The position numbers were made by a program, and so were the translations under genes. A stretch of DNA of 64,000 nt from a virus (lineage: Duplodnaviria; Heunggongvirae; Uroviricota; Caudoviricetes), in IMG/VR virus record IMGVR_UViG_3300048813_000140, positions 50,702 to 114,701 of that record, one strand, 5' to 3'. The notes beneath the pieces are model-generated. The model saw nothing but the letters and a program-made list of their open reading frames with translations. It searched no databases and was not told the DNA's origin. Position 1 is the stretch's first letter, and each line of letters begins with the position of its first letter. This document shows positions 120 to 19,975 of the stretch, piece by piece.

Positions 120-333
120 ACGTATGTAGTTTTTACATTGTTTATAAGTTCTACAATTGACTCAACTTATTGACTTCATTCTAATATAACCAAAATAAAG
201 CGTTGTATGACCATTAATTTGACATACGTATTAGAATGAGATCAAATAGAATTGAGGTGTTATCCTATTTAGTTTAGGTATACGCATTGCAATGATAGTC
301 TATATCGAAACTAACTAACGAAAGGGTTTTAAA
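120..333 (+). promoter_or_regulatory. Upstream cassette A ending in a sigma-54-like -24/-12 element (aGGtat-N5-TTGCA at 276-291)
   Basis: GG at 277-278 and GC at 289-290, the exact sigma-54 spacing. It shares the CAATAGAAT and AGTTCTACA blocks with six other cassettes. The ATG is at 334. Confidence 0.45.
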
Positions 334-1035
334 ATGAATACGATTAGACGTGACAAAAATGGTCGCCGTAGTTTTAAAGGCAAAACAACTAATAGTCCAG
401 GCAAGTCTCAAAACGAGGCATTCTATGACGCAGTTTTCTACGTCCATCTATACGCCTATCTTAAAGCTAACAAAAACGCAACGGCTCACATCTTAGTTGG
501 AGACGTATCAGGATTAGACAGACATATTGGCAGACTCCTTGCACTAGGCTTTTTAATTCAAAACATTTATATACACGAATTAGTTGACGAGTTAGCAGAT
601 AGTCTAAAACTCGCATGTCTCAAAAGGGGATATAAGTGTAAAGTTGAGACAGGTTGCATGATCTCAAAATTAGACAAATTTGGCATGGCTGGCATGAATA
701 TTGCATACGTAGAATTTGATGGTACGTCCAGTTATGGACGTTTTGAGTTTAAATTGTTTCAATTATGTAAAATATACAATATTCCATTTATTTTGACTGA
801 AGGCGCCTCACGCTATCAAGACGTTAACTTTAAGTCGTGGTGTCAATCCAATGGCATTAAAAAGACCATTGACGAAAGGCATGCATACGAAAACAGAGCG
901 CCTAGATATGAATTGGAACGTATAGCCCCAATAGTGGCTCAAAAAGAGATGAAAGGCTATGTATCTCATTACGAGACATATCAAGGCGTTAGTGGAATGT
1001 ATACTCAAGCATTTATAAATAAAAGGTATATCTAA
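334..1035 (+). CDS. hypothetical protein (233 aa)
   Basis: Long ORF directly downstream of cassette A. RBS aaaggg-N7-ATG. Contains the recurring in-frame SQNE and YET peptides. Confidence 0.6.
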   Translation: MNTIRRDKNGRRSFKGKTTNSPGKSQNEAFYDAVFYVHLYAYLKANKNATAHILVGDVSGLDRHIGRLLALGFLIQNIYIHELVDELADSLKLACLKRGYKCKVETGCMISKLDKFGMAGMNIAYVEFDGTSSYGRFEFKLFQLCKIYNIPFILTEGASRYQDVNFKSWCQSNGIKKTIDERHAYENRAPRYELERIAPIVAQKEMKGYVSHYETYQGVSGMYTQAFINKRYI

Positions 1036-1208
1036 TGAAAAAATCTGAACTAATTGAAAAAATCATTGAGGCGAGACTTAAAACCATGTCCTTAAAACAA
1101 TTGCAAGACCTATATCGCAAAAACTTTAGAGACATATATCAAGACTATGACTTATTGAGTCTAGAATTGGAGTATAAGAGACTAACTGAAAAAAGACTGG
1201 ATAACTGA
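1035..1208 (+). CDS. small hypothetical protein (57 aa)
   Basis: ATG overlaps the upstream stop (TAATG). Not in the ORF track because it is under 60 aa. The frame was checked by hand. Confidence 0.35.
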   Translation: MKKSELIEKIIEARLKTMSLKQLQDLYRKNFRDIYQDYDLLSLELEYKRLTEKRLDN

Positions 1209-1424
1209 CTAAGATTTTGACATTGGATAACAGTTCTACATAGTTGCCTAACTTATTGTAAACACTTGTAAAATATTGTAAAATGGTGATTAGTTGTTTA
1301 TAAGTTTTACACTGTATTGGTTTGAGACTCAATAGAATCGCGGTGTTATCCTATTGGTTTTGTGGCATATGCGTTGCATTGATATACTGTATCAAGACGT
1401 TAACAACTAACTAAGGGGATACCA
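1205..1424 (+). promoter_or_regulatory. Upstream cassette B with a sigma-54-like -24/-12 element (TGGCAT-atgcg-TTGCA at 1363-1378)
   Basis: Close match to TGGCAC-N5-TTGCA. Upstream TTGACATTGGATA...AGTTCTACA block and CAATAGAATCG block are present. A conserved leader (GATATACTGTATCAAGACGTTAACA) follows. RBS AAGGGGA. Confidence 0.55.
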
Positions 1425-1598
1425 TGCAACGCAAAACGCTAACTATAAATAATCTCACTTTCGATCTAGTGATTCATTCTATTGACGGCGAAGTCTCAGA
1501 AGTATACGCGTCTCATAATGGGATGGAAATTGCCTTCGCGTATGATCTTGAGTCAATAGACGACAAGTTAACTGAATTCGTTTCGAACTGGTCTTAAT
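1425..1598 (+). CDS. small hypothetical protein (57 aa)
   Basis: ATG follows an AAGGGGATACC RBS downstream of cassette B. The frame was translated by hand. Confidence 0.45.
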
Positions 1599-1673
1599 TT
1601 GATACAGTGGCGAGCGTCTCTGGATGGGACGTTCTCTAATGTACCAAAACAATACGTAACAAAGGGGGATTCT

Positions 1674-2033
1674 ATGTTTAGGGCTATCAATGGCTGGACT
1701 AAAGCTAGCATAATCGCGCACTTGACTCAAAATTGGAGAGGGAATAGTTTTACGGTCAAAGGGGGCAAGTTCTCATGTCGATACAGAGGTCCTGATAGCA
1801 AAAAATGTGCCGTTGGCATGTTTATACCTGATAGCCTATATGAGGCTAGTTTTGAGACGCTTCCCGTTAACAGAATTATAGGTCCTAACTGTACTGCGTT
1901 AGCGCTTGCAATGCCTCTCGAAACATATGCTTTGTCAATTTTGCAAGGAATACACGACTATCATGCCTCAGAATGGAACAGTGATGCGTTGCCCTTTTTG
2001 ATTCAATGGGTTGAAAAAAACGTGGAGGCGTAA
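1674..2033 (+). CDS. hypothetical protein (119 aa; the ORF-track frame begins at 1599)
   Basis: The internal ATG at 1674 has a strong AAGGGGGAT RBS. There is no RBS at 1599. Contains the SFET peptide. Confidence 0.55.
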   Translation: MFRAINGWTKASIIAHLTQNWRGNSFTVKGGKFSCRYRGPDSKKCAVGMFIPDSLYEASFETLPVNRIIGPNCTALALAMPLETYALSILQGIHDYHASEWNSDALPFLIQWVEKNVEA

Positions 2034-2034
2034 A

Positions 2035-2190
2035 ATGTGCCAAAATGATACATTGCAGTTGGGGCCTTTCAAGTATATAGTATTGCAACGCGTTGAATCA
2101 ATGGTCCTGTTAGGATGGAGAGATAGCATGTCCCATATTGAGAAAACGATGTGGGTCAATTTGAAACATTTACAAGGAGTATCAAAATGA
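2035..2190 (+). CDS. small hypothetical protein (51 aa)
   Basis: GGAGG RBS 6 nt before the ATG. The stop overlaps the next start (ATGA). Confidence 0.35.
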   Translation: MCQNDTLQLGPFKYIVLQRVESMVLLGWRDSMSHIEKTMWVNLKHLQGVSK

Positions 2191-2402
2191 TCAATCCCAA
2201 TAAGATACACAGTCGTGGTATTGTACGCTCTAAAGACCGATTTGGTGGCGGTACAATACAGATAGGTCCTAATATATTTGAAACGGCTTTAGGCGTTGAC
2301 CTGTCTCGTTTTGAGATTGGTGATGTGGTTTCAATTAGTTGTAGTTATCGCATTACTTCAGACCGATACGTTATTGACTCGGTTAGAAAGGTTAGGTCTT
2401 AA
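2187..2402 (+). CDS. hypothetical protein (71 aa)
   Basis: RBS plus start context CAAGGAGTATCAAAATG, a member of the recurring translation-initiation motif. The track used an upstream GTG. Confidence 0.5.
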   Translation: MINPNKIHSRGIVRSKDRFGGGTIQIGPNIFETALGVDLSRFEIGDVVSISCSYRITSDRYVIDSVRKVRS

Positions 2403-2627
2403 ATGGCGCGGTTAGCCGTTAGGAGAGACTATTGTAAAATATACAATATAATGGGGCGCTATTCGGACTTGTCCTATTGGATTGTAATGTATCATTCTGG
2501 GGCGTATGGTTTTGGATATATGGCCCAAGGCAGGTTTTGGTTGTCTCACGATGAGAAAGTGTCCCAAAATGAGATTGTTGACCTCATTGCGCGGCGCGAA
2601 TCTGAATTTGAGACAAGTGCCGACTAA
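2403..2627 (+). CDS. hypothetical protein (74 aa)
   Basis: The ORF abuts the upstream stop. Contains the SQNE and EFET peptides. Confidence 0.45.
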   Translation: MARLAVRRDYCKIYNIMGRYSDLSYWIVMYHSGAYGFGYMAQGRFWLSHDEKVSQNEIVDLIARRESEFETSAD

Positions 2628-2848
2628 GGTATTGACATTGTATAGTTGTTTTACATAGTTAGCTAACCTATTGTAAACAGTTGTAAAATGCTATAAAGTG
2701 CCATTTAATTGACCAATAGTTCGACAGTGTTTTGTTTTGATACTCAATAGAATCGCATGTTTAGGCCATTGATTTTATGGCACAACGCATGCAATAGACT
2801 AATACAGAGCGTTGCAATTAAGCGGCGCCTAACAAAAGGGGATTTAAT
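2628..2848 (+). promoter_or_regulatory. Upstream cassette C with a sigma-54-like -24/-12 element (TGGCAC-aacgc-ATGCA at 2778-2793)
   Basis: Exact GG-N10-GC spacing. TTGACATTGTATAG...TACATAG and CAATAGTTCGACA / CAATAGAATCG blocks lie upstream. The leader is ATAGACTAATACAGAGCG. RBS AAAGGGGAT. Confidence 0.55.
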
Positions 2849-3718
2849 ATGTCTTTAATTTTGAATTTGAATGGCCAACCTGTCTCAAAAACATCCTTTA
2901 CCCAAGACACAAAACATGACTCAAAAAGCGACAAATTTAAGGTCATCGTGCCGGAATATGGTCAAGAGTTGTTATCGGACTATGGTTATAAGCGTGTTTC
3001 ATTGCATACCGGTCGTGCGCGAAAATTGGAAAATGTCAATCACCAGACCACCATTGCAACGTATCAAAATGAGACTGCACTGAAAGTGGGCGACATTTTC
3101 CCGCGTATCACATTGAAAATTCCCCATATATATGGCGCAGTTGAGGCCTTTGCAGCGTTTTTGCGGTTAGCGTGTCTCAATGGCAACGCCTATCGCTTGA
3201 CCGATAGCGGTAAAACCAAAATTAGGCATACGGGCGATGCCCAGTCTCAATTTGAGGCAACTATTAAATTGCTGGTTGACCATACCGCCGAAATGAATGA
3301 CTCAATTCGGGAATTGCAAGCTCGTAACGTAACGCCCGATCAAGTAGCTGAATTCACTCAAGAAGTAGCTCGTCTCAGATTGGGATCTCTCCCAGGCGAC
3401 AAGGACTCAAACATCGTCTCAGTTCAATACGATGATCTTCTCAGAGTGAGACGTGCTGCTGACTCTGGACAAGACGCTTTCACAGTGTATCAAATTGAGC
3501 AGGAAAATGTTCTCAAATATGGCCTAAGATATATGACACGCTCAATTGACGAGGTAACAGGCCGTACCAATTTGAGACAGCTAGTTGCACGCCCTATTAC
3601 GAGAACAGCTCAGGGCGAAATTGAGACAGTGCGCAGTGTCGATATGAATGTCTCAATAATGGAATTAGCTCGTAAAATCCTATTAAATAAGTCGGTGCCT
3701 GTTAGTCAAGCAGCCTAA
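2849..3718 (+). CDS. hypothetical protein (289 aa)
   Basis: Long ORF with RBS AAAAGGGGA. Followed by a strong intrinsic terminator. Confidence 0.7.
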   Translation: MSLILNLNGQPVSKTSFTQDTKHDSKSDKFKVIVPEYGQELLSDYGYKRVSLHTGRARKLENVNHQTTIATYQNETALKVGDIFPRITLKIPHIYGAVEAFAAFLRLACLNGNAYRLTDSGKTKIRHTGDAQSQFEATIKLLVDHTAEMNDSIRELQARNVTPDQVAEFTQEVARLRLGSLPGDKDSNIVSVQYDDLLRVRRAADSGQDAFTVYQIEQENVLKYGLRYMTRSIDEVTGRTNLRQLVARPITRTAQGEIETVRSVDMNVSIMELARKILLNKSVPVSQAA

Positions 3719-3748
3719 CCGTATCGTTCTGATACGACCATAGTTTCG

Positions 3749-3778
3749 CCCTGTCTCGCAATGAGACGGGGCTTTTTT
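3749..3778 (+). terminator. Rho-independent terminator (CCCTGTCTC-gcaat-GAGACGGGG followed by TTTTTT)
   Basis: 9-bp GC-rich stem with one G:U pair, a 5-nt loop, and a T6 run immediately 3' of the stem. Confidence 0.7.
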
Positions 3779-3789
3779 GCGTTTTGTGG

Positions 3790-3900
3790 GCGCGTGCTAT
3801 CAATTGACTGGACTTATTGACTCAACGCCTTGACGGGCCTAACACGGGCCTGTATTGACCGACCTAACGCCTAGCTGTATTGACACAAAAACGTATTGTA
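3790..3900 (+). repeat. Iteron-like array: five (T)ATTGAC repeats interleaved with two CCTAACRC repeats
   Basis: attgactggac / ttattgactcaac / cttgacggg / tattgaccgac / tattgacac lie within about 100 bp. The word ATTGACTCAAC recurs in cassette A (163-173). Confidence 0.45.
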
Positions 3901-4119
3901 TTTTGTGGCACTGTATAAGGTTTTTGTTTCGCCTATAAGTTTTACAGCGTGTTATCCCATTGATTCTATTGCAATATAGCCAAAACCATTGAAAATAGTA
4001 CAATAGTTCGACACTGACTCAATATGCGACTCAATAGAATCAATGCGTTAGCCTATTGATTTTCGGCACGCTCTATGCATTGATATACTGTATCAAGACG
4101 TTAACAAAAAGGGGATAAC
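3880..4119 (+). promoter_or_regulatory. Upstream cassette D with a sigma-54-like -24/-12 element (CGGCAC-gctct-ATGCA at 4064-4079)
   Basis: GG at 4065-66 and GC at 4077-78. Two CAATAGTTCGACA / CAATAGAATC blocks lie upstream. The leader is identical to cassette B (GATATACTGTATCAAGACGTTAACA). Confidence 0.5.
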
Positions 4120-4323
4120 ATGGGAGCGCCGAAAAAAGTTGTATCAAGAGAAGAATATGTATCAAAATGGAACGCCCATTTGAGCCAAATGCTGTGGGTC
4201 AGTTTGGGACTGAATCAAAATGACACAGAGGACTATTTAAAGGCCATTGAGACATTGAGACATATCATAGACGTATCGGCCCAAGAACTGCCATCTCAAA
4301 ATGATACAGAGGAGTCGATATGA
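4120..4323 (+). CDS. hypothetical protein (67 aa)
   Basis: RBS AAAAAGGGGATAAC before the ATG. Contains two in-frame SQND / NQND peptides. Confidence 0.55.
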   Translation: MGAPKKVVSREEYVSKWNAHLSQMLWVSLGLNQNDTEDYLKAIETLRHIIDVSAQELPSQNDTEESI

Positions 4324-4404
4324 AAATCATATGGAACATGCTAGTGTTTTACAGTTTAGGCTATATGCTAGGCGTTTTAATAATTGCAAGTGGAGTATTA
4401 AAAT

Positions 4405-4558
4405 GAGACGCTATATTATTCTGTATCGTAATGCGTCAGGAGTCAAGCGTATCGAAATGATACGCGCATTGGATATAAATGACGCAACGTCTCAAGCTGA
4501 GAAATTCTGTTCCAAAATGGGTCGCACGTTATATGCGATAGATCGTGGATCGTTATGA
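4405..4558 (+). CDS. hypothetical protein (51 aa; the track extends the frame to 4301)
   Basis: The start context GTGGAGTATTAAAATGAGA matches the recurring translation-initiation motif. Confidence 0.35.
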
Positions 4559-4788
4559 GCCGTTTCATTATAAGACGTTATCGCTTTGGCTTTCGCATAG
4601 TTGAGGTAGTAGGACAAGGATCTCATTTTGGTACGCTGGCTATTCAATGGGATGGCCTGTTTCAAACTGAGAATAGAGCGGTATCTCATATCGAGACTGC
4701 TCTCAAAACTGAGCTATCGTATCAAAAAGGAGCGTATCATTATGAAAAAATTACAACTGGTAACGACTCAAAAAGAGACAATCGTTGA
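4555..4788 (+). CDS. hypothetical protein (77 aa)
   Basis: ATGA start/stop overlap. Contains the SHIET peptide. Overlaps the next gene in a different frame. Confidence 0.35.
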   Translation: MSRFIIRRYRFGFRIVEVVGQGSHFGTLAIQWDGLFQTENRAVSHIETALKTELSYQKGAYHYEKITTGNDSKRDNR

Positions 4789-4957
4789 ATATCATACTAA
4801 TACTATGGCCGTCGAGCGCCGCAAAAATGAGTTGTGCTCTAAGTTAGACATTGAATCGGTCGAGATAACAGATACAATACAGCACGTCGAAATAATTGAC
4901 ACGCCTAAAGCGACCATTGAAAAATATATTGATATAGAAGAGGAGGTCTCAAAATGA
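4742..4957 (+). CDS. hypothetical protein (71 aa; the track frame starts at 4628)
   Basis: AAAGGAG RBS 9 nt before the ATG at 4742. Confidence 0.4.
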   Translation: MKKLQLVTTQKETIVEYHTNTMAVERRKNELCSKLDIESVEITDTIQHVEIIDTPKATIEKYIDIEEEVSK

Positions 4958-5043
4958 TACTGTATGGGATTATCGGCACGTTTCTTGCAATATACCTAGC
5001 CTGTAGTTTTTACATGCTAGTCAAAAAACATGAGGAGTCTTAA
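4954..5043 (+). CDS. small hydrophobic peptide (29 aa, one TM helix)
   Basis: Start context GGAGGTCTCAAAATG. Hydrophobic core ILYGIIGTFLAIYLA. Under 60 aa, so not in the track. Confidence 0.3.
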   Translation: MILYGIIGTFLAIYLACSFYMLVKKHEES

Positions 5044-5044
5044 A

Positions 5045-5245
5045 ATGGGACTGGACGAAATTAAAGGCACCGCGTTTTATAAGTGGGCGTGTTTACAGAA
5101 TCCAGAGACACTATTCTATCATTTAATTGAGTGTCTTAAACAAGGCGGCGCTAACAATATTGTATGGGACTTGTTTACAGCGTTAGGTCTCAAGGCAGTG
5201 CACGCCGAGTCAATCATGGTTATGGTACGATTTTTGCAACAATAA
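5045..5245 (+). CDS. hypothetical protein (66 aa; the track lists 5030)
   Basis: Start context GAGGAGTCTTAAAATGGGA. Confidence 0.5.
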   Translation: MGLDEIKGTAFYKWACLQNPETLFYHLIECLKQGGANNIVWDLFTALGLKAVHAESIMVMVRFLQQ

Positions 5246-5434
5246 GAAAGTGAGACATTATGTATACTTGTGAATATAATGAAAAATTGAATGAATGGTC
5301 TATCTTTAGAGATAACGAAATATTTTGCCATTTATATGATACTGATTTTTGGATTTTTGTGTCAAAATGGCCCTGTGAAATAAAACAAATAAAATAAACC
5401 GTCCCATTATGGGACATAACAAGGGAGTATCAAA

Positions 5435-5899
5435 ATGGGATATACGCACTATTGGACTTTCAAAAAGGCACCGCGAGGCACTGCGGCTCAAACTGAGAAA
5501 GTGTACCAAAAAGCGATTAAAGAGTGTACCAAAGTGATACGTGACTATTCTGAGACATTTGGTGGCTTGTCGGGCTATTCGGCTCATTCTGATACATATG
5601 GTGGCGTGCTAGTCAATGGCTCAGAACGAGTCGGTCAATGCGAGCCGTTAGTCTTGAGGGAGCATTTTTCTCAAAATGAGGCATTTAATTTTTGCAAAAC
5701 GGGACAGTATCCCTATGATACAGTGGTCACAGCATGCCTTATCATTTTGAAACATCGGCTCGGTTCTTGCATTGACGTAACGTCTGACGGGCGTGCCGAT
5801 AATTGGAACGACGGTCTCATTTTGGTACAAAAGGTATTGGGTCTCAAAAAGGTACAGATTCCCGATACGATACGCAAAAATGAGAAAATCTCAGCTTGA
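5435..5899 (+). CDS. hypothetical protein (154 aa)
   Basis: Start context GGGAGTATCAAAATGGGA. Contains the SQNE and SETF peptides. Confidence 0.6.
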   Translation: MGYTHYWTFKKAPRGTAAQTEKVYQKAIKECTKVIRDYSETFGGLSGYSAHSDTYGGVLVNGSERVGQCEPLVLREHFSQNEAFNFCKTGQYPYDTVVTACLIILKHRLGSCIDVTSDGRADNWNDGLILVQKVLGLKKVQIPDTIRKNEKISA

Positions 5900-5967
5900 T
5901 ACAGTTCGGTGGCATCCTATCGGTGCCACTCATAGTGTATCAATATGACACACTAAAACAAGGGAGT

Positions 5968-6642
5968 ATTATGGGAAATCTATTGACTCAAAATGGGAAA
6001 ATGAAGAAATCGTCTCAAAATGGGATTACCAATGTTAACTGGACTATTCCAGCCTTTCAGTCCAGTACAGGACTAAAGACTTGTCCTAACGCTGGACTAT
6101 GTTCTATAGGATGTTATGCTAGGAGCGGTGCCTATATGTTCTCTAATGTAAAAAGAGCGCACGAGGCAAAACTTGCATTGACTCAATCTGATACATTCGT
6201 TGGTCTAATAATTGCAGACATAGACTTGTGGCTCAAAAAGAGAAACACAAAGCATCTCAAAGTGAGAATCCACGATGCGGGCGATTTTTATAGTGTCTCA
6301 TATTTAGACAAGTGGGTAAAAATAATGAACCATTTTGAAACAGATAGCCGTGTCTCATTTTACGCCTATACTAAACAAGTCGAATTGTTTAAGACTTCTA
6401 AAGGTATCCCGTCGAATTTTACAGTTATTTTCAGTCAAGGCGGTAAACAAGACCATTTAATTGACATAACTAAAGACCGACACGCGCGCGTATTCCAGAC
6501 CATTGAAGCACTTGAGTCGGCAGGGTATCAAAATGGGACAGAAGACGATATGGTCGCAGCGTGCGGAAAATCAAATAAAATCGGCCTAGTGTTTCACCAC
6601 GCAAAATCATGGGAAAATACAGCATGGGACAAGGTGGCTTAA
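5968..6642 (+). CDS. hypothetical protein (224 aa)
   Basis: The ATG at 5968 follows an AGGGAG RBS. The track's 5896 is a TTG start. The N-terminal motif W-x-I-P...CPNAGLCSIGCYARSGAY faintly resembles phage Gp37/Gp68 family N-termini (low confidence). Confidence 0.55.
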   Translation: MMGNLLTQNGKMKKSSQNGITNVNWTIPAFQSSTGLKTCPNAGLCSIGCYARSGAYMFSNVKRAHEAKLALTQSDTFVGLIIADIDLWLKKRNTKHLKVRIHDAGDFYSVSYLDKWVKIMNHFETDSRVSFYAYTKQVELFKTSKGIPSNFTVIFSQGGKQDHLIDITKDRHARVFQTIEALESAGYQNGTEDDMVAACGKSNKIGLVFHHAKSWENTAWDKVA

Positions 6643-6643
6643 T

Positions 6644-6844
6644 ATGGGACGTACCGATTTACTACGACTCAATGAATGCGCTCAATATTTGATTGACTCA
6701 GAACGAGACGATTTTTACGAATATGTCTTTAATGGAGAAGATCCTATAAATCATGTATTTTCGGTGGCCTATATAGCGTTGCATGGGGAGTCTGATTTTG
6801 AAACGTTAGTCAAAAACCTAAAGGAGTCTCAAAATGGGATCTGA
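6644..6844 (+). CDS. hypothetical protein (66 aa)
   Basis: Its C-terminal codons K-E-S-Q-N-G-I are the RBS plus start of the next gene. Confidence 0.5.
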   Translation: MGRTDLLRLNECAQYLIDSERDDFYEYVFNGEDPINHVFSVAYIALHGESDFETLVKNLKESQNGI

Positions 6845-7142
6845 TTCTATTTTCTTTAAAGTAAAGGGTAAAGCAAGTAAAGACGAAATTAATAAGGCAT
6901 TCAAGGCACGTCAAGAGTCCGATGCCGACGAAAATGGTCATAGACAAGGTTATAGCGGTGATTTTCAGACTGTACACAAAATAGACTTTAGATTGTATCA
7001 AACTGATACGTTCGAGTCTCTAAATGAGGCACAGGAATATTGTCTAAAGCATGCTGAAAAATTCCTAACCGTTATAGCCGTCTACTACAAGAACAAGGAT
7101 TCTCAAATTGATACACTCGTCGGTGGTTGGGGAGCGTGCTAG
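6834..7142 (+). CDS. hypothetical protein (102 aa)
   Basis: Start context AAGGAGTCTCAAAATGGGA. Confidence 0.5.
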   Translation: MGSDSIFFKVKGKASKDEINKAFKARQESDADENGHRQGYSGDFQTVHKIDFRLYQTDTFESLNEAQEYCLKHAEKFLTVIAVYYKNKDSQIDTLVGGWGAC

Positions 7143-7143
7143 A

Positions 7144-7311
7144 ATGGAACAGTATCAAATTGAGACCTATTGGTTTGGGCATGTTGTTTGCATGCGTAGA
7201 AATGGAATAGCCGTCTCAAAAGCGTACAAGACTCATAATGAGGCACAGCAGTATATTCTCAAACTGAGATTGTTAAGGAAATATAAACCGTCTCGATTTG
7301 AGACCAAATAG
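7144..7311 (+). CDS. hypothetical protein (55 aa; the track frame starts at 7108)
   Basis: The ATG follows GGGGAG. Contains the IETY and RFET peptides. Confidence 0.4.
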   Translation: MEQYQIETYWFGHVVCMRRNGIAVSKAYKTHNEAQQYILKLRLLRKYKPSRFETK

Positions 7312-7320
7312 GAGACCAAT

Positions 7321-7482
7321 ATGGAACGTATCGAATTGGATCAAGACGATTTTTGTCCTAATTGTTTGAGTGACAATATATCAAATGGAGACGACTCAAA
7401 TGAATACGGTGACATGCAATTAATATGCCATAATTGTAGCTATCAATGGGAAGTGCCTCAGAATGAGGCGTATAATGAATAG
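7321..7482 (+). CDS. small zinc-ribbon protein (53 aa; CPNC...CHNC)
   Basis: RBS TAGGAGACCAATATG. Two CxxC pairs. Confidence 0.4.
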   Translation: MERIELDQDDFCPNCLSDNISNGDDSNEYGDMQLICHNCSYQWEVPQNEAYNE

Positions 7483-7666
7483 ACATAAGTCTGGCACCAA
7501 AAGTGCATGCTTCAAACGTCTCAAAGTGGGACAGTATATTTATGATACATGGTATGGATCTGGCACAGTTATTGCTAAGAAAAAGACTCGCTGTATCATT
7601 AAGATACATTCTCAATCTGAGGCATGGACCTATGATATGTCTCATATTAGGATGTTTATTGAATAG
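7463..7666 (+). CDS. hypothetical protein (67 aa)
   Basis: ORF-track entry, overlapping the preceding gene. Confidence 0.3.
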   Translation: MRRIMNRHKSGTKSACFKRLKVGQYIYDTWYGSGTVIAKKKTRCIIKIHSQSEAWTYDMSHIRMFIE

Positions 7667-7789
7667 ATAGGTGAATAGGTAAAGCGTCCCATTTTGGGAT
7701 ACTTAGCATGGTATTGAATAGACTAGCGAATAGATAAAAAGTCTCAAATAGAGACAGAAATGGGGATACATTGAAAAATCTAATACTAA

Positions 7790-8060
7790 AGCATGGGGAT
7801 AACGTCAAGGCGTTACGAGACGTTAGCACGTCTTTAGGGGCGTTAACACGCGGCGCGACCTATCGCGTTGACTCCCTTGATAACGGGGCGTTAGTTGTTT
7901 TTACGTCGACCGGACCTATAGAACTAGTCGACTCGACGGGCGAAATAACCGATGCATGCCTTGACGTTAGGCGGTTAGCGCTTAGTGTCGCACTGCCTTT
8001 AGGCGCGTGCCCTATTTTTGACACGACTCGACGGCTAGGCTAGGCCGTTAGGACTTTAAA
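7790..8060 (+). repeat. Array of about 10 (G)CGTTAG / CGTTAAC / CGTTAGG repeats in a locally GC-rich stretch
   Basis: ggcgttacgagacgttagcacg, gggcgttaacacg, ggggcgttagttg, gacgttaggcggttagcgcttag, ggccgttaggac. The overlapping ORF 7771-8043 would need a TTG start. Confidence 0.4.
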
Positions 8061-8790: not shown

Positions 8791-9078
8791 ACTGATAGGT
8801 CTAAAACGTCCTAATCCTGCTTATAGGGCTGCCTTTCAAGGTTGCCTTTGTCGTTTGTGGTATCTGAGTCAATCGTTGATTTAAAGGCCAATTTGTCCAT
8901 TTTATAGGCCTATGGAGTGGGTAACGGGGAGTGGGTTGACAGCCCTCTCCCTAAAATCGTTTTTCAGAAGTGTTTTTTCTCAAAATCGAATTTTTAGGTG
9001 TATATAGTGGTGACTAAGTTATAGAGCGCGAAGCGTCACACAGCATAGCGCAGCGTAACAAAACTTTACATCTATTTT

Positions 9079-9176: not shown

Positions 9177-9366
9177 ACCCCGATGTCTGTAAAGTTTACA
9201 CTCGCTCAGAAGTTTGACACGCTGCTAACGATATGAATACAGGCCCCTACTGGGTAAAATGGTAAAAACTGTCTATAAGTTCTCCAAAACCCTTTTTTCA
9301 GGTCTCTAATAAAATCAACGCATTGAGTCTGGCACGCTACCTGCATTAGATATCTGTACCCCTTGT

Positions 9367-12439: not shown

Positions 12440-12658
12440 CCCCAATAGGGATAACTGTCTAACCTTTGCAAGTTGTGCAATAGTTCGACACCACACTAAA
12501 TCATTCGAACTATACGGAAATTCCAGATAGTTCAATTCTCTGCTCAAAAGTTCTACACAATCCCACAAATAGAAACCAATAGATTCAATGCGTTATAATT
12601 GGCACGCGCTCTGCATTAGACTAATACAGAACGCGCTGATGCGGATTAAGGGGAGAAT
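12440..12658 (+). promoter_or_regulatory. Upstream cassette E with a sigma-54-like -24/-12 element (TGGCAC-gcgct-CTGCA at 12600-12615)
   Basis: CAATAGTTCGACA, AGTTCTACACAAT and CAATAGATTCAATGCG blocks lie upstream. The leader is TAGACTAATACAGAACGCG. RBS AAGGGGAGAATATG. Confidence 0.55.
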
Positions 12659-13394: not shown

Positions 13395-13829
13395 ATGAAA
13401 TTCGATCAGAGCAAGCTAGAGATAGTAACGCTAAAGGGCGAAGAGATCACGGACGAATTTTTCGAGCTAACTAATAAATCGGCTGGCACAATCATGTATT
13501 GGATGATAAACAATCGTCCTTGGCTAACCGGCACCGCGATCAAGTACGAGGGCCAATTTATTGCTTGGTCTGTTCACATCATGCCTGAATTAAAGAATGC
13601 TATTGCGGCAGTACCATTAAAATGGAGGCGAGAGATAGCTGTAGATTTCAGCATTATAGTCAACGAATTAAGAAAGAGCGCTCTAGCCTGTACTCATAAC
13701 GCTAGGCATACATCGTACAATGGCAGAGAAGAGTGTCAATCGTGCGGTTGTCACAGAAACTTAGAGTTAGAAGACCAAAGTCCAAATTCATGGAATGAGC
13801 GTAAGGTTTGGTCAGAGTGGAAAGTCTAG
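13395..13829 (+). CDS. hypothetical protein (144 aa)
   Basis: ORF track. RBS AAAGGGTAAAAAATG. Confidence 0.6.
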   Translation: MKFDQSKLEIVTLKGEEITDEFFELTNKSAGTIMYWMINNRPWLTGTAIKYEGQFIAWSVHIMPELKNAIAAVPLKWRREIAVDFSIIVNELRKSALACTHNARHTSYNGREECQSCGCHRNLELEDQSPNSWNERKVWSEWKV

Positions 13830-13978
13830 ACATTGTATAGAAGTTCGACAGCTTGATTTTGTTCATTAATACTGAACATCGTACAAACATTGAACAGGAG
13901 GCTTGCGTCAAGTCCAATTAAATGATGACGCAGGCTGGCATGCCGATTGCTTTATAGTAATGTATCAAGGGAGAGTAT
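13830..13978 (+). promoter_or_regulatory. Upstream cassette F with a sigma-54-like -24/-12 element (TGGCAT-gccga-TTGCT at 13936-13951)
   Basis: GG-N10-GC spacing. The distal block is TAGACATTGTATAGAAGTTCGACA. The leader is TATAGTAATGTATCAAGGGAG. Confidence 0.5.
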
Positions 13979-16063
13979 ATGAAAATTGGAGAACATGACA
14001 ATACATTTGAAACAAATGCCAAAGTTAAATCGCAAGACTTCAGCGTGGGCAATTCAGCTAAGATCATTGGCATCTTGCGCAATCGGCTTTATGAGCACAA
14101 GGTGCGCTCTATGTGCCAAGAGATCATGTGCAATGGCCGTGACGCGCTCAGAGAGATCAAATCAAACAAACGTATTATCGTGTCTATCCCTAACCAAATG
14201 TCTCCCGTATTTAAAGTGAAAGACTTCGGTCCTGGCATTAGCCCAGATCGTATGGCTAACGTATTCATTCGCTATGGTACGTCCACCAAGGACGAGTCCA
14301 ACGAACAAACTGGCGGCCTAGGCATTGGTGCCAAGAGCCCATTCGCCTACACCGACTCATTCACCATTATCTCAATCACAGATGGCAAAAAACGTACATA
14401 TGTAGCACACATAGGCGTGAATAGCCAAGGTCGTCTCGATTTGATATCCACGGATGAGACAGATGAACAAAATGGGACAGAGATTAACGTAGCCGTGAAG
14501 CCTGGAGATCTGAACGAATTTAGGACTTCCATCTATCGCGCAGCTTACTTCTGGAAAGACGAAGAATATCCAGAGTTTAAAGGTATCGTGGCTTCAGATT
14601 TGCCTAAACGATATGTGCCTGGTATCAAAATTGGAAACTTCGAATTAGTAGCATCTATTCCCGACTTCATGGGCGCTAGCTACTATGGAGATAAGTATCT
14701 AGTTATTATTGATGGCATTCTTTATCCAGTCAATGAGAAACTAGCTAGAGAAGTCTCTACGGTTAAGCAGACCTTAGGCATGGCTAAACACATGTGCGTA
14801 CTGCACATTGGTAACGGAGTAGTTGAGGTAGCAGCATCCAGAGAATCTATCGCTGATAGCGAAATGACACGTACAAACTTGGCAGGGGTATCCCTCAAAG
14901 CCCTAAACGATTTAAACGCTTATCTGAAAACTGAATTTTCACTTGTCAAGTCTAACGCCGATTGGATCAAAACATACCACAGACTAAATCAATTGGTTAG
15001 CGTTGATGAGCATGCAGCCTACGGGGATTACAAAATTGTGCGCGGTATGGTAGAATCAAAACTGTTTTCTAAGGTCACTATGACTCGCATTGGATATTCT
15101 AGCTCTCGTCGTGGTGCTACCAAGTTTTACAGAGACGACGCTAACACTATCAATACGGATAATATTGATCAAGTCTTCCTATTAGATAACGTAATGGATT
15201 CAATCATTATCCAAAACAAACGTATTCGCGAATACCTCGAAAAGAACAAAAAGGGTGCCGTAATGCTGTTGAGTCTCAAGGTGTTACCTGACATCTTAGA
15301 CCAAACAACTAAGAAGGTGGTAAGCCCCGGTATTACCCAAAAAGAAACACAGACTGCTCTAAATAAGATCGTAAAGGACTTCGGTGCCCAAAACCTATCT
15401 ACGCTACCCTTCACGCCCACAGTGAGAGTGCCAAGGGCCAAGCAAGATCGCACCAAAGAGATGTTTACTATTCATGAGTGCGATAATAATGGTAAGCATC
15501 CGTTGACTACAACCTTAGCAGATGTAAGTGTCAAGGCACATACTTATCTATATGTAAACCTTAAGGATTACGATAAGTATAAAGATGAGTTTGCTAAAAT
15601 GGACGACTATTTGTACGCTTATCATTATAAGCCATGTGCTCTATCGGATGACTCTATCAAATTGGTACTCAATGGATCTAAGAAATTTGAGACATATGAG
15701 AATTGGAAGAAGAATTTCAATGCTGACTCCAAAACGCTCAAGGCTGCTAAAAATCAGAAGTATAAAAACCATAAGGTAATTGAGATCTTGAAACGTGCAG
15801 ATCAAAAGATTAAATGCAAGCATACTACTAAAATGATTGAGGAATATGATTCTGCAAAAGGTGGACACAATATCAATATCCCAGAACCAATCATCAAATT
15901 GGTTGCTAATGAGATAGCTTCATACATCGAAGACGATAAAAAGTTGACAGAACTAGTCGAAACAGAGTATCCTTTAATTCTGACAGTGAAAGAAGTGTCG
16001 GACTATAGGCTTCAGAAGAAAGACGCAAACGAATTAGTGTTTTATATCAATGCGAAACAATAG
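13979..16063 (+). CDS. GHKL-superfamily ATPase (Hsp90/HtpG- or MORC-like N-terminal Bergerat fold), 694 aa
   Basis: Motifs QEIMCNGRDA (E-x-x-x-N-x-x-D N-box), DFGPGIS (G1 box) and TGGLGIGAKS (G2 box) occur in the order typical of HATPase_c-type ATPases. Confidence 0.75.
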   Translation: MKIGEHDNTFETNAKVKSQDFSVGNSAKIIGILRNRLYEHKVRSMCQEIMCNGRDALREIKSNKRIIVSIPNQMSPVFKVKDFGPGISPDRMANVFIRYGTSTKDESNEQTGGLGIGAKSPFAYTDSFTIISITDGKKRTYVAHIGVNSQGRLDLISTDETDEQNGTEINVAVKPGDLNEFRTSIYRAAYFWKDEEYPEFKGIVASDLPKRYVPGIKIGNFELVASIPDFMGASYYGDKYLVIIDGILYPVNEKLAREVSTVKQTLGMAKHMCVLHIGNGVVEVAASRESIADSEMTRTNLAGVSLKALNDLNAYLKTEFSLVKSNADWIKTYHRLNQLVSVDEHAAYGDYKIVRGMVESKLFSKVTMTRIGYSSSRRGATKFYRDDANTINTDNIDQVFLLDNVMDSIIIQNKRIREYLEKNKKGAVMLLSLKVLPDILDQTTKKVVSPGITQKETQTALNKIVKDFGAQNLSTLPFTPTVRVPRAKQDRTKEMFTIHECDNNGKHPLTTTLADVSVKAHTYLYVNLKDYDKYKDEFAKMDDYLYAYHYKPCALSDDSIKLVLNGSKKFETYENWKKNFNADSKTLKAAKNQKYKNHKVIEILKRADQKIKCKHTTKMIEEYDSAKGGHNINIPEPIIKLVANEIASYIEDDKKLTELVETEYPLILTVKEVSDYRLQKKDANELVFYINAKQ

Positions 16064-16071: not shown

Positions 16072-17223
16072 ATGAAATTTAAAGTAGGAGATAGAGTTAA
16101 GATCAAGAAGGCCAATTTAGACTCTGCATGGTCCCGCCATCATCCTGGTGAAATTGATACTATAGTTGAAATCGGAGATGGTTACGCTTTATTAGAAGAA
16201 GGGCTCAAAGCTGGTCACGGTGGCGGCGTACATTTGTATGAAATTAAACTAGTCAAGGAGAATAAAATGTCAAAGGTTACATTCTTAAAATTGAACGACT
16301 CAATCACGTTGCATTACAATGGTAAAACCAAAGTAGTAGCCAAAGACGATGAGCGCTTTGGGCGAGTCTTGCAGGCTATTCGCGATAATAACTTGGACTC
16401 TATTCCTAATATCGTTGAGTTAGAGAAACCTTTGCTACAGCAAGGCGTCGAAGTAGACGATGGCTTGGTTACGGTCAATGGGGAAGCAATGCCCGCAGAA
16501 CTAAATGCTCGTATCGTTGAGTATTCTAAAGAGAAACTCCCGTTCGAATCGCTCAAACTGTTTTGGGATAACCTTAGCCAAAACCCAAGCTTCAACTCTC
16601 GTAAGCGGTTGTTTAAGTTCTTGGAAAACAAAGGACATTCCATTACAGAGGATGGACACTTCATTGGTTATCGCGGCGTAACGGAAGACTTCAAAGACAG
16701 GCACACAAAGAAGTTTGATAACAAGCCTGGCTCAGTATGTGAAGTGCCACGAACTAGCGTTGACGATAATCCTAACAATACATGCTCTTATGGCCTACAT
16801 GTTGGCGGTTATGAATACGCCAAGGACTTCGGTAAAGACGGCAAGCTTGTCATGGTAAAGGTCCACCCAAAAGACGTGGTGGCCGTTCCCAACGACTATA
16901 ATGGCCAAAAGATGCGTGTGTGTCGGTTTGAAGTACTTCGTGAAGCTGAAGGCATACTGGAGAGTCCTGTGGTGGGTAGCAAGGGAGAAAAGAAATCATT
17001 CCCTGAAATCGCAAAAGCTATTGGTAAGGTAATTACGTACTCCGATGCTAAAGTTGTTGTCAATGGCAAAGAAGTGACTTCATTTTGGGAAGACGCGGAA
17101 GCCTTAATGAAAACAGCGCGTCGCGTACCCAACTATGCGAATAACCACAACAAACGCGATAAGTTTGGAAAGTTTGCATCCAAAAAGAAATCGGCTAAGG
17201 CTGCGAAAAGGAGCAGAAAATGA
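16072..17223 (+). CDS. hypothetical protein (383 aa) with an N-terminal KOW/SH3-like 'KVGDRVKIK' domain and a basic C-terminal tail
   Basis: RBS TAGGAGAACATATG. The N-domain is paralogous to the two repeats in gene 24240-25118. The central region has a weak R(YRG)...S(CSY)...E-x-E(EAE) pattern reminiscent of R-S-E ADP-ribosyltransferases (speculative). Confidence 0.7.
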   Translation: MKFKVGDRVKIKKANLDSAWSRHHPGEIDTIVEIGDGYALLEEGLKAGHGGGVHLYEIKLVKENKMSKVTFLKLNDSITLHYNGKTKVVAKDDERFGRVLQAIRDNNLDSIPNIVELEKPLLQQGVEVDDGLVTVNGEAMPAELNARIVEYSKEKLPFESLKLFWDNLSQNPSFNSRKRLFKFLENKGHSITEDGHFIGYRGVTEDFKDRHTKKFDNKPGSVCEVPRTSVDDNPNNTCSYGLHVGGYEYAKDFGKDGKLVMVKVHPKDVVAVPNDYNGQKMRVCRFEVLREAEGILESPVVGSKGEKKSFPEIAKAIGKVITYSDAKVVVNGKEVTSFWEDAEALMKTARRVPNYANNHNKRDKFGKFASKKKSAKAAKRSRK

Positions 17224-17507
17224 GCACTCTAGTGATCAAAAGGTACCAAAATCGTAAGCTATATAATACGGAAACCTCTAGCTACGTGACATTGAAGGAC
17301 ATTGCAGTACAGGTTGGACTCGGAAGAAACGTGCAAGTGATTGAGGCTAAGACTGGCGATGAAATAACGGGATCTATTTTGCTTAGGGCAATCGTAGAAT
17401 ATGAAGTCGACGAACTCAATTCAAAGGCTCCTATGTTCGTCGATATCATTAAGGCCGGTGGAATAGCCAATTATGTAGATAAAGTTAAGACACCTATCTA
17501 TGGCTAG
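17220..17507 (+). CDS. PhaR-like DNA-binding protein (PHB/PHA accumulation regulator N-terminal domain)
   Basis: RYQNRKLYNTETSSYVTLKDIAVQVGLGRNVQVIEAKTGDEITGSILLRAIVEYE closely follows the PhaR N-domain consensus (KKYPNRRLYDTETSSYITLEDI...V.D.KTGEDLT..IL.QII.E). Confidence 0.7.
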   Translation: MSTLVIKRYQNRKLYNTETSSYVTLKDIAVQVGLGRNVQVIEAKTGDEITGSILLRAIVEYEVDELNSKAPMFVDIIKAGGIANYVDKVKTPIYG

Positions 17508-17983: not shown

Positions 17984-18402
17984 ATGAAAATGATTGAAAT
18001 AGATGATACCAAAATATCAGTTAAAGATTTCTCAAAATGGATTCGAGCGCTCCGCTCTGGAAAATTTCAGCAAACTAGAGGAACCTAAATGATATGGCTG
18101 GTTTTTGCTGTCTTGGGGTGGCCTGTATGGTGTTTATTCCTGAGAATATAGCCAAAACACGCCCACGCTTTGGGGACGATAGTGGTAGAGAATTTTTAGT
18201 AGGTGATATGCCAGACAGTCAACCCCATGCACCAAAATGGGTAAATGATATTGACATGGATTTCGAATTGAGAACTGGAACGCCGCTAAGTTCGCTAAAT
18301 GATGGAAGTCTTGATCATGCGGCTCTCACGTTCGACGAGATTGCCGACGTTCTTGAGGCAGTATATCTAGAGAAGGTTTTAGATGAAGTCGATCCAGCTT
18401 GA
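17984..18402 (+). pseudogene. Split or frameshifted paralog of gene 11800-12189 (N-part 17984-18088, C-part 18094-18402 in a different frame)
   Basis: FSKWIRALRSGKFQQTRGT* aligns to FTKWIQALRSGEYKQTTGQ. After the stop, a different frame continues MAGFCCLGVACMV...TFDEIADVLEAVYLEKVL, homologous to the rest of the paralog. Confidence 0.5.
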
Positions 18403-18571
18403 GTGCGAAAAATGTGGGACAGTGCCAGACACTATCTATGTTATAGAGCCTTGGTATTGTTGCGAAGAATGCGCTCTCGCCGAAGTGAGACGGCAGCGTT
18501 TTGAAGAAGAAAATATTTTATTTGACAATGATAACGCAATGCAGGATAATGAGGTTGGAGGTATCAAATGA
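18383..18571 (+). CDS. small zinc-ribbon protein (62 aa; CEKC...CCEEC)
   Basis: ORF track. Two Cys pairs. Confidence 0.45.
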   Translation: MKSIQLECEKCGTVPDTIYVIEPWYCCEECALAEVRRQRFEEENILFDNDNAMQDNEVGGIK

Positions 18572-18795
18572 TCAGGACGATGGTCAATAAACAAGAATAT
18601 GATGTGATGTTCGAGGATATTGGAGCACATCAAAGACTTATAGTGTTTCAGGAAGGTAAGCGTATAGGTCACAGAGATCTAGGACTACTAACCGACACAG
18701 GACGTGGAGTGATTGATTACTGTATTAAAAAGATACTAATGGATATTGAGATGGAAGAATTTTTAACAAACCCAAATGGAGAAATTGTTATATGA
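18568..18795 (+). CDS. hypothetical protein (75 aa)
   Basis: ORF track. ATGA overlap. Confidence 0.5.
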   Translation: MIRTMVNKQEYDVMFEDIGAHQRLIVFQEGKRIGHRDLGLLTDTGRGVIDYCIKKILMDIEMEEFLTNPNGEIVI

Positions 18796-19610
18796 AATAT
18801 CTAAGCGTAATTATGTTTTTGTCTTTGGCTGGCTGTGGTACGGAATTTGCCACAGTGCAATACAAACCCGCACCATCTTGTACTACGGTAGATACTAGCA
18901 CTGGAGCGACAGTTACTTGTCCAGATGGCAGTACGTCTACTATTACCAATGGCACAAATGGTCAAAATGGAGCCACAGGTCAGGCAGGGGCTACAGGAGC
19001 TACAGGAGCTACTGGAGCCACGGGTCCATCCGCACCTACACCTCCCACAACGCCAGTGAGTACAATCGTATCAAACTACGACGAATATTTGGTTAGCCAG
19101 GGTAGCGATCCTTTAAGTCCAGGATTGAGATGCACGCTTTACAATGTTCCTAACTTGCCTGCTACGCCTTGCCTGCTATCTAGCAGCATCGTAGGATGCA
19201 CGCAGCTATCGACTACGGTTGGATACGCCACGGTAGCAACTTGGACCTATAACGGGACAATTAATCAAGCAAATGAAAATGGCACTGCTGGATTCAATAT
19301 GTTACCAACAGCACTACAGCCATTATATTCTTCAAACTTTGCAATCACTTGTACTGGATATATTGTCAATGCAGACTACAATTATCACGAATTTGACACA
19401 TCTAGTGATGACGGCTCATTGCTGTATATCGGTGGAAGTCTAGTGGTCAATAATGACGGCCTCCATTCAGTAGCCAATGTTAAGGCTGAGAAGTACCTAG
19501 AGGCTCAAGTTTATTCCTTTCAGATAAACTACTTCCAAGGCCCCGGACAAGTATCCCTGATCGCAAATATGGACGGCGCTCCAATCCCTGCGGCGAACTT
19601 CTACCACTAA
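18792..19610 (+). CDS. secreted lipoprotein with a collagen-like G-X-Y repeat (272 aa)
   Basis: MKYLSVIMFLSLAGCG is a perfect lipobox (LAGC). Nine consecutive GXY triplets GTNGQNGATGQAGATGATGATGATGPS. The C-terminal beta-rich domain is Cys-containing. Confidence 0.7.
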   Translation: MKYLSVIMFLSLAGCGTEFATVQYKPAPSCTTVDTSTGATVTCPDGSTSTITNGTNGQNGATGQAGATGATGATGATGPSAPTPPTTPVSTIVSNYDEYLVSQGSDPLSPGLRCTLYNVPNLPATPCLLSSSIVGCTQLSTTVGYATVATWTYNGTINQANENGTAGFNMLPTALQPLYSSNFAITCTGYIVNADYNYHEFDTSSDDGSLLYIGGSLVVNNDGLHSVANVKAEKYLEAQVYSFQINYFQGPGQVSLIANMDGAPIPAANFYH

Positions 19611-19612
19611 AA

Positions 19613-19795
19613 ATGCGCTGCGCTTATTGTTCTTCCATTCTTATCCCCTTAGATCCCGTCCAGCAAACTTCCGCTGGATGGGATAAACTATTTATAGTAT
19701 TAGATAAAAAGACTCTTTATTTCTGCTGCGTAGAATGTCAAGATAAATACCGTTTCAAACTAAAAACAAAGGTCATCGGCATATTCAGTCGTTAA
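19613..19795 (+). CDS. small Cys-rich protein (60 aa; CAYC...CCVEC)
   Basis: ORF track. Confidence 0.4.
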   Translation: MRCAYCSSILIPLDPVQQTSAGWDKLFIVLDKKTLYFCCVECQDKYRFKLKTKVIGIFSR

Positions 19796-19799
19796 TGGT

Positions 19800-19975
19800 T
19801 TTGACACTGTCTATAAATTCTACAATACACAAAATCTACACTAATTGCGATAACTTGCATTATAAAACTTAGATTCACGTATAAAAGTTCTACACCATCT
19901 CCTAATGATACTGTAATGAAATCAATAAGTTAAAGTTGGCACGGCTTCTGCATTAATAGTATATGTGAGGTGCGA
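19800..19975 (+). promoter_or_regulatory. Upstream cassette G with a sigma-54-like -24/-12 element (TGGCAC-ggctt-CTGCA at 19937-19952)
   Basis: TTGACACTGTCTATAAATTCTACAAT and AAGTTCTACACC blocks lie upstream. GAGGTG RBS. The ATG is at 19976. Confidence 0.5.

Follow-up and report, generated by a model that had tools for sequence, protein, structure and literature searches.

Putative sigma-54-class promoters repeated across the early region of an uncultured phage lineage

RNA polymerase carrying sigma-54 (RpoN) cannot initiate transcription alone and needs an ATP-driven activator, and some promoters of this class, such as Pu of Pseudomonas putida and that of Klebsiella nifH, are assisted by IHF. 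The use of sigma-54 by phages is called "rare" but "not unprecedented" in a passage of a 2016 article that cites the Pseudomonas aeruginosa phage YuA as strictly dependent on the sigma-54 of its host (PMC5053324), and the part of a 2024 transcript-start study that concerns YuA ties one of its promoters (P015) to a sigma-54-like region, beside sigma-70-like and phage-specific ones (PMC10914365). Nothing comparable beyond YuA was found in the literature. The present study concerns a 64,000-nt stretch of phage DNA (positions 50,702 to 114,701 of the IMG/VR record IMGVR_UViG_3300048813_000140; hereafter the window), in which elements with the -24/-12 geometry of sigma-54 promoters precede the genes of an early region. 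The phage resembles YuA, an unrelated siphovirus, in carrying a sigma-54-like promoter, and the development of YuA is reported, in the passage cited above, to depend on host sigma-54. Unlike YuA, for which the cited part describes one such region, at least eight early transcription units are involved here, and they have an enhancer-like architecture that is shared across a lineage of phages of ∼165-177 kb.

The elements were scored against the consensus TGGCACG-N4-TTGCW at 12 positions, with GG and GC fixed and a threshold of at least 10 of 12, and because the scans fix the GG-N10-GC spacing, the shared geometry holds for spacing-exact copies only. At this threshold 23 matches were found in the window, far above the 3.05 ± 1.87 found in 200 dinucleotide-preserving shuffles of it, so the excess over shuffled sequence that a preliminary description of this DNA had named as a check is present within the window. 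The enrichment over shuffles is 7- to 30-fold, with nine matches of at least 11 of 12 against 0.3 in the shuffles and nine matches to the strict pattern TGGCAY-N5-YTGCW against 0.28 expected. The matches are strongly biased in strand and position, as 20 of the 23 are on the plus strand and all but two of the 23 fall within the first 20 kb. In the orientation of the gene, eight elements are situated 23-88 nt before start codons, and seven of these eight reach 10 of 12 or more. All are on the plus strand: AGGTATACGCATTGCA (276..291), the exception at 8 of 12 with a weak -24 block (AGGTAT-N5-TTGCA), lies 42 nt before the ATG at 334; TGGCATATGCGTTGCA (1363..1378) lies 45 nt before the ATG at 1424; TGGCACAACGCATGCA (2778..2793; TGGCAC-N5-ATGCA) lies 55 nt before the ATG at 2849, which starts a DUF932 gene; CGGCACGCTCTATGCA (4064..4079; CGGCAC-N5-ATGCA), which is preceded by a terminator-like hairpin at 3748-3772, lies 40 nt before the ATG at 4120; and four elements scoring 11 of 12, TGGCACGCTACCTGCA (9330..9345), TGGCACGCGCTCTGCA (12600..12615), TGGCATGCCGATTGCT (13936..13951) and TGGCACGGCTTCTGCA (19937..19952), lie 88 nt before the ATG at 9434, 43 nt before that at 12659, 27 nt before that of rIIA at 13979 and 23 nt before that at 19976, respectively. 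The last of these heads a plus-strand run of genes with few intergenic gaps that extends to ∼27.2 kb. A candidate extra element, CGGCACGTTTCTTGCA (4974..4989, plus strand; 11 of 12), is placed 40 nt before the ATG at 5030 without the upstream box described below. Seven of the cassettes had been listed in the preliminary description, and they are present where it placed them, each with GG-N10-GC upstream of the named start codon, but the list was incomplete because the strong copy at 9330-9345 was overlooked. The strict TGGCAY-N5-(T/C)TGCW that it assigned to all seven fits the elements at 1363, 12600, 13936 and 19937 and not those at 276, 2778 and 4064, and the distance to the ATG, given there as 24-55 nt, measures 23-55 nt.

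The exact rIIA protein of the window is also present on a Joint Genome Institute (JGI) contig of 175,837 bp, which indicates a genome of ∼176 kb, of which the window makes up about a third, and rIIA homologues led to many metagenomic relatives, several of them on contigs 161-177 kb long. Eleven phages, with rIIA proteins 34-100% identical to that of the window and GC contents of 37-50%, have a TGGCAY-N5-nTGCW element 42-66 nt upstream of the rIIA start, and 10 phages besides that of the window therefore share it at -42 to -66. The spacers of these copies all differ (ATGCCGA, ACGACGC, ACACTGG, ACGGCAA, etc.) while the blocks are conserved. The same is seen when 32 gene-proximal elements, eight from the window and 24 from 12 related loci (13 sources in all), each with GG-N10-GC, are aligned: the information resides in two blocks, TGGCAY and TGCW, that are spaced by exactly one helical turn, and the 5-6 nt spacer holds nearly none. 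Across 13 related loci (163 kb), 68 matches of at least 10 of 12 were counted, against 7.4 in shuffles, and 47 of them are on the gene strand; the locus L012 has two perfect copies (12 of 12), and the element at 9330 has positional counterparts in L012 (at 9106) and in the locus L018 (at 4643). Conserved blocks with free spacers at orthologous sites rule out chance and passive duplication as the source of the motif, and selection, to judge from the alignment, acts on precisely the two blocks recognized by RpoN. The 10-of-12 threshold is also reached on the sense strand within open reading frames of the early region of the window, at 528, 690, 5756, 7177, 7561, 10569 and 18836, where such matches are commoner than in the late region, and at least one intragenic match in the relatives (L012 7194, L018 2355) apparently lies in orthologous coding sequence; coding constraint may explain some of these, and the remaining ones may be internal promoters.

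The Myxococcus phage Mx1 proved unsuitable as a comparator because it has no rIIA or rIIB and its 170 kb contain only six matches at the 10-of-12 threshold, which is the background level, and the system is not shared with it. Four matches to the cassette pattern in IMG/VR were discarded as chance occurrences inside coding sequence. A search of 185,579 bacterial and archaeal genomes for the box followed by the -24/-12 element returned two hits and no host regulon. One of them, inside a protease gene, was rejected; the other (L097, 7425-7493 of CAZIWB010000034.1) has the box, a 42-nt gap and TGGCAT-N6-TGCA, on a phage-like 55 kb contig that encodes helicase-like and ClpP-like proteins and was binned with an uncultured Cellvibrionaceae genome. 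Comparison of this contig with the window and eight related loci by tblastx showed no similarity, and it gives a weak hint of Cellvibrionaceae as the host group.

The cassettes that carry the elements are members of repeat families (e.g. 161 nt at 75% identity and 73 nt at 71%), and their alignment bears out the shared distal blocks noted in the preliminary description. From upstream to downstream, a cassette consists of a AAAAGTTCTACA box, an IHF-like AATCAAnnnnTTA, the -24/-12 element and a conserved TA. With up to one mismatch to AAGTTCTACA, the window has 16 copies of the box where 5.7 are expected, and 10 of the 16 fall on the plus strand of its first 20 kb. The proximal box at 12548..12557 (plus strand) ends 42 nt before TGGCA, and its equivalents are at 19885-19894 (gap of 42 nt), 9277-9286 (43), 1302-1311 (51), 2717-2726 (51) and 4004-4013 (50). 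In the alignment, the distance from the 3' end of the box to the T of TGGCA is 41-43 nt in 13 of the 32 promoters and 50-51 nt in three, which makes two classes about one helical turn apart. Five of the 32 have an additional box-like copy 84-85 nt upstream, and further copies in the eight window cassettes end 85-122 nt before TGGCA, mostly as the two-part block TTGACA-N11/12-TTCTACA, which is found on the plus strand at 19801..19824 (repeat family D4) and, equivalently, at 132-155, 1217-1240, 2632-2655, 9195-9219 and 13827-13850. In 12 of the 32 promoters, the IHF-like core, taken with at most one mismatch to the consensus WATCAANNNNTTR, begins exactly 17 nt upstream of TGGCA, and it is nearly absent elsewhere in the range of 13-110 nt that was scanned. 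It is seen as AATCAATAAGTTA at 19920..19932 (plus strand), with others at 9313-9325 (exact), 12583-12595 (one mismatch) and 4038-4050 (exact, but at an offset of 26). In a second class of cassettes, those of the genes at 334, 1424, 2849 and 4120, the space between the box and the -24 block is occupied by CTCAATAGAATC and CCTATTGRTTTT; the CTCAATAGAATC module lies at 1328..1339 (plus strand; families D2, D3 and D7), followed by CCTATTGRTTTT and the element, with other copies at 2743-2754 and 4030-4041, a degenerate one at 242-253, and two in L012 (2993 and 4899). The box and the IHF-like core keep the same distances in the relatives. The conserved transcribed leader proposed in the preliminary description is shared only within the paralogous pairs 1424/4120 and 2849/12659 and, in the relatives, does not extend beyond the TA that follows the -12 block. 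The 9346-9433 leader that follows the promoter at 9330 has a hairpin (CCCACAGA...TCTGTGGG, then TATTTTT; -23.1 kcal/mol, z = -1.75), which could be an attenuator or a small RNA, and the counterpart promoters in L012 (9106) and L018 (4643) have leaders of about the same length.

This anatomy resembles that of the E. coli pspA promoter, which has the same TGGCAC-N5-TTGCW core and an A/T-rich AATCAAAAAGATA core starting 19 nt before TGGCACG, where the phage AATCAAnnnnTTA starts 17 nt before TGGCA; a further conserved sequence lies upstream of the AATCAAAAAGATA core in pspA. We take the former to be the IHF site of pspA and the latter to be its PspF site, which would lie ∼63-80 nt before TGGCAC, as compared with 42-52 nt for the phage box. 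In contrast with bacterial IHF-assisted promoters, where the upstream site is a dyad, the phage AAAAGTTCTACA box is single, asymmetric and held at a rigid distance; moreover, the promoters are on a virus, number at least eight within 20 kb and have no linked cognate activator gene that we could find. The box matches no enhancer-binding-protein site known to us, the nearest being the TGT-N10-ACA of NifA, and some boxes read TGT-N11-ACA. Other identities for it were considered and dropped: as a sigma-70 promoter, TTGACA-N14-TACA has the wrong spacing, and as a sigma-28 promoter, the box is not followed by GCCGATAA. The PhaR-like protein encoded at 17220-17507 was also rejected as the binder of the box, because homologues occur in relatives without these promoters and no specific link was seen.

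The position upstream of rIIA is occupied by other kinds of promoter sequence in some relatives. In L019 (∼7970-8000) it has TTGACA-N18-TATAGT and in L023 (∼1140-1175) TTGACA-N17-TAAAAT, whereas L101, L103, L105 and L115 have TAAAGTTT-N11-GCCGATAA, a perfect match to the sigma-28 (FliA) consensus. In loci of this latter type, the gene strand has 10-12 of these sites, and a ribosome-binding site follows closely after each of them. Examples are found in L101 (665), in L103 (12 sites, e.g. 9929), in L105 (1370) and in L115, which is the same as L032 (10 sites, e.g. 9927), and sites of this type also occur in L025/L026, L028, L033, L061 and L082. The motif of these sister phages, T(A/C)AAGTTT-N11-(G/A)CCGATAA, is perfect or near-perfect, almost always on the gene strand and 20-50 nt before ribosome-binding sites, and their rIIA proteins are 28-37% identical where the matches are full-length. 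In the window, the sigma-28 motif has only matches with three or more mismatches, none of them upstream of genes. The occurrence of sigma-70-, sigma-54- and sigma-28-type sites at one orthologous place identifies that place as a promoter slot, and such a succession seems hard to explain unless each is a working promoter and the phages use the sigma factors of their hosts directly. Standard host promoters are apparently used as well, since a good sigma-70 promoter with an extended -10 (TTGCAC-N16-TGgTAAAAT, 28340-28392) stands ahead of the operon that starts at 28393.

The statement in the preliminary description that no bacterial enhancer-binding protein (bEBP) is visible in the window was confirmed by motif, phmmer and Pfam searches, which for this phage covered the 64-kb window, about a third of the genome. 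A GAFTGA-like loop, a Walker A motif of the bEBP type (G[EA][ST]G[TSV]GK) and the RpoN box ARRTVAKYR are absent from its six frames. A phmmer search with PspF, for which the positive control gave 5.9e-65, gave no hit in the window, the complete Mx1 genome or ∼1 Mb of fetched loci, and among 84 early-region proteins Pfam detected no AAA+ or sigma-54 family, the only DNA-binding domain being of the PhaR type. In pattern-limited scans of 2.9 million IMG/VR contigs, two peptide patterns identified 76 bEBP-encoding contigs, none of them among the related full-length ones, and a back-translated RpoN box identified seven contigs, none of this lineage. The records returned by tblastn with PspF against GenBank phage entries were set aside because their titles and annotations show them to be apparently bacterial or mislabeled contigs. 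Because no canonical activator was found, a host enhancer-binding protein or a phage protein of a non-canonical kind is the most likely candidate for this role.

Taken together, the motif, its orientation and position, its conservation and its upstream sites suggest that the elements are probably genuine promoters of the host sigma-54 (RpoN) class, serving the early-region operons of a lytic phage of ∼176 kb, and a whole phage lineage seems to run its early program through a sigma factor that phages almost never use. If so, the sigma-54 holoenzyme would bind TGGCAY-N5-nTGCW as a closed complex, and an activator on the AAAAGTTCTACA boxes, of which more copies lie one or more helical turns further up, would open it. 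The IHF-like AATCAAnnnnTTA lies directly against the -24 block, and bending of the DNA there would bring the activator to the polymerase. Transcription would start 11-13 nt downstream of the GC, so that the leaders would measure 13-78 nt, and the transcripts would cover the early operons at 334, 1424, 2849, 4120, 9434, 12659, 13979 (rIIA, rIIB and the genes that follow) and 19976 onward. Several observations weigh against this interpretation. Three of the seven elements listed at first (276, 2778 and 4064) deviate from the strict pattern, about 10 more plus-strand matches fall inside open reading frames, and the shared leader is accounted for by paralogy. The box is a single asymmetric sequence of 10-12 bp, unlike the usual dyads of enhancer-binding proteins, and its retention across phages that presumably have different hosts fits a phage-encoded binder better than a host one. 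The alignment of the 32 promoters shows the conserved TA after the -12 block, where hexamers resembling TAGATA or TATAGT are frequent. An enhancer-binding ATPase was not found in the window, in the fetched loci or, by a pattern-limited scan, on the related full-length IMG/VR contigs. Finally, the eighth, weaker copy of the preliminary description belongs to an array of palindromic double sites, which look more like operators for a symmetric protein and which a simple promoter model does not explain.

The most serious alternative, though a rather unlikely one, is that these are phage-specific promoters at which a phage factor redirects the host core or sigma-70 polymerase through TGGCA-N6-TGCA and a TA-rich -10, or at which a phage-encoded sigma factor acts, the likeness to RpoN promoters being convergent. 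The TA after the -12 block would then be part of a -10 hexamer, and TATACT, TAGACT or TATAGT does occur in many copies, three window copies have the TGn of an extended -10, and the sigma-70 promoter of L019 has its TATAGT at the same distance from the rIIA start. But the last T of the would-be -10, which like the A at position 2 is nearly invariant in sigma-70 promoters, is present in only ∼40% of the 32 promoters (alignment read by eye), there is no -35 hexamer 16-18 nt upstream of the TA-rich hexamer, and positions 1-20 kb show no excess of sigma-70-like sites (66 against 57.1). The lineage-wide conservation of the box is as expected of a co-evolving phage factor, no bEBP was found in the searches made, and the annotation of the related phage Mx1 includes a sigma-70-family protein, a homologue of which may lie outside the window; on the other hand, the match of 10-11 of 12 to the universal RpoN consensus, including the G after TGGCAC, recurs in many independent copies, and the use of two blocks separated by just 11-12 bp is not known for any factor of the sigma-70 family. 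The exact sigma-28 consensus in the sister phages likewise favors the direct use of host alternative sigma factors. Repeated promoter cassettes are also known from large lytic phages such as T4, whose promoters consist of sigma-70 -10/-35 sites or of a MotA box (TGCTTtA) centered at -30, 11-13 bp from a -10 hexamer. As in the early and middle regions of T4, many similar cassettes are spread across small early genes that include rIIA and rIIB, and some cassettes add a second, sigma-70-like site upstream: a separate distal TTGACA-N16-CATAGT is present in two of them (1217 and 2632) and may be an additional sigma-70 promoter. Unlike those of T4, the conserved blocks are 11-12 bp apart and match RpoN; the TTGCW block comes within 3 nt of the TA-rich hexamer, which does not suit a T4-type middle promoter, and neither a MotA nor an AsiA family was detected by Pfam among the 84 early-region proteins.

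The palindromic double sites raise the question of whether the TGGCA-N6-GTGCA blocks are operators. The weaker copy that the preliminary description reported at 8403-8418 is real, but it is one of four TGGCA-N6-GTGCA sites in both orientations (8355-8370, minus; 8403-8418, plus; 8432-8447, plus; 8452-8467, minus) upstream of an 81-amino-acid gene at 8545. The last two form an imperfect palindrome at 8432-8467 (TGGCAC-N5-GTGCA TATA TGCAC-N5-GTGCCA), and the general form of such face-to-face pairs of elements, ∼34 bp in length, is TGGCAC-N5-TTGCAT/ATGCAA-N5-GTGCCA. Counterparts are found in L012 (∼8518-8550), upstream of the equivalent 81-amino-acid gene, and at the aligned position in L018 (3398-3430 and ∼3470-3505), and arrays occur in the more distant phages L083 (three, 3535-3709) and L048 (several, 2154-2700). 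An RNA hairpin was rejected because the spacers are not complementary, and symmetric blocks with non-complementary spacers point to recognition of the DNA by a protein. The palindromes could be operators for a symmetric protein or compact divergent pairs of sigma-54 promoters. That all TGGCA-N6-TGCA sites are operators for a symmetric regulator of phage or host origin, with the single sites as half-operators beside promoters and the palindromes as full operators, is improbable. The orthologous palindromes and arrays, an identical 17-mer at 7492 and 8432 (family D17) and the PhaR-type DNA-binding protein encoded in the window are what such a regulator would lead one to expect, yet the PhaR-like gene is also present in relatives without such sites, and a two-element palindrome can be read equally well as a divergent promoter pair. 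Most copies, moreover, are single, asymmetric, always gene-oriented and at a fixed short distance from start codons, with no other recognizable promoter between element and gene, and sigma-70- and sigma-28-type promoters substitute for them at the same slot. It is very improbable that the motif is a mere passenger, copied within recently duplicated intergenic segments and having no function of its own, because, although the cassettes are clearly paralogous and the pairs 1424/4120 and 2849/12659 have identical stretches downstream of the element, the spacers within the window differ while GG and GC stay, the element is kept at orthologous positions where the flanks are not recognizably similar, the proteins are 34-57% identical and the spacers are free, and the enrichment holds over the 163 kb of related loci, so that the comparative data already contradict it.

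The window has a GC content of 41%. Plus-strand genes, mostly small open reading frames, span positions 1 to ∼33 kb of the window, and the structural genes are on the minus strand from ∼33 to 64 kb. The plus-strand genes encode, among others, the DUF932 protein (2849-3718), rIIA (13979-16063), rIIB (16072-17223), the PhaR-type DNA-binding protein recognized by Pfam (17220-17507) and an SPFH protein. The capsid protein is 53% identical to that of Mx1. A near-identity search with positions 1-20 kb gave no match among GenBank phages, and the best rIIA matches among isolates reach 28-33% identity across roughly half of its length; the phage therefore has no cultured relative and no published transcriptome. 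Pfam also identified an Acb2/Tad1 hairpin-domain protein, of a family of anti-defense sponges, a pentapeptide-repeat protein and a GP88-family protein among the early-region proteins (1-37 kb). A 522-amino-acid protein encoded among the minus-strand genes (49011-50579) has an mCpol domain. A 70-nt coding repeat, 76% identical between 12114-12183 and 18312-18381, links two paralogous DUF8296 genes (11800-12189 and 18094-18402), and an Rfam scan of the whole window gave no hits.

Several other repeats were observed. About 35 copies of GTCTCA-WWWW-GRGAY, an imperfect hairpin with a 5-bp stem, lie on the plus strand of the window (400-8600; e.g. 5401, 7290, 7741 and 12357), both inside open reading frames and just before ribosome-binding sites; the window has 36 copies of GTCTCA in all, 24 of which fall within its first 8 kb, and the motif also lies beside promoter elements in L012 and L018. 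An A-rich repeat of ∼75 nt is found in two long non-coding regions (9095-9170 and 28290-28365), and one copy coincides with a break in the Logan assembly. GGGGAGTGGGT is repeated in various locations (49-60 and 8915-8935 of the window; 311-352 and 466-480 are listed for repeats in L005), three tandem copies of ATGTATTTCATTGT lie just upstream of the start of the window, and ∼645 nt at 8790-9434 contain no convincing open reading frame.

As a kind, sigma-54 promoters are well known and have one phage precedent; what appears to be new is a lineage-wide, multi-copy early regulon that has its own upstream architecture and no canonical activator among the proteins searched, with sigma-28-type sites at the same positions in sister phages. 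One possibility, which we put forward only tentatively, is that an uncultured lineage of phages of ∼165-177 kb runs its early program on host sigma-54 without a canonical enhancer-binding ATPase, either because a new phage protein at the AAAAGTTCTACA box opens the complex or because a host activator switched on by infection or motility is tapped, and that sister lineages do the same with sigma-28. If the early genes sit behind sigma-54 promoters, the virus must solve the activator requirement within minutes of entry. The natural contrasts between phages that have sigma-70- or sigma-28-type sites at the same position make the choice of host sigma factor by a phage testable, as is the question of whether that choice ties infection to the state of the host, such as its motility or membrane stress. 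Tightly gated parts for gene expression might also be made from these promoters. If the tentative possibility above is correct, this group of phages has repeatedly rewired its early promoters among the sigma factors of its hosts, and its reliance on sigma-54 or sigma-28 could confine infection to cells that are flagellated and motile.

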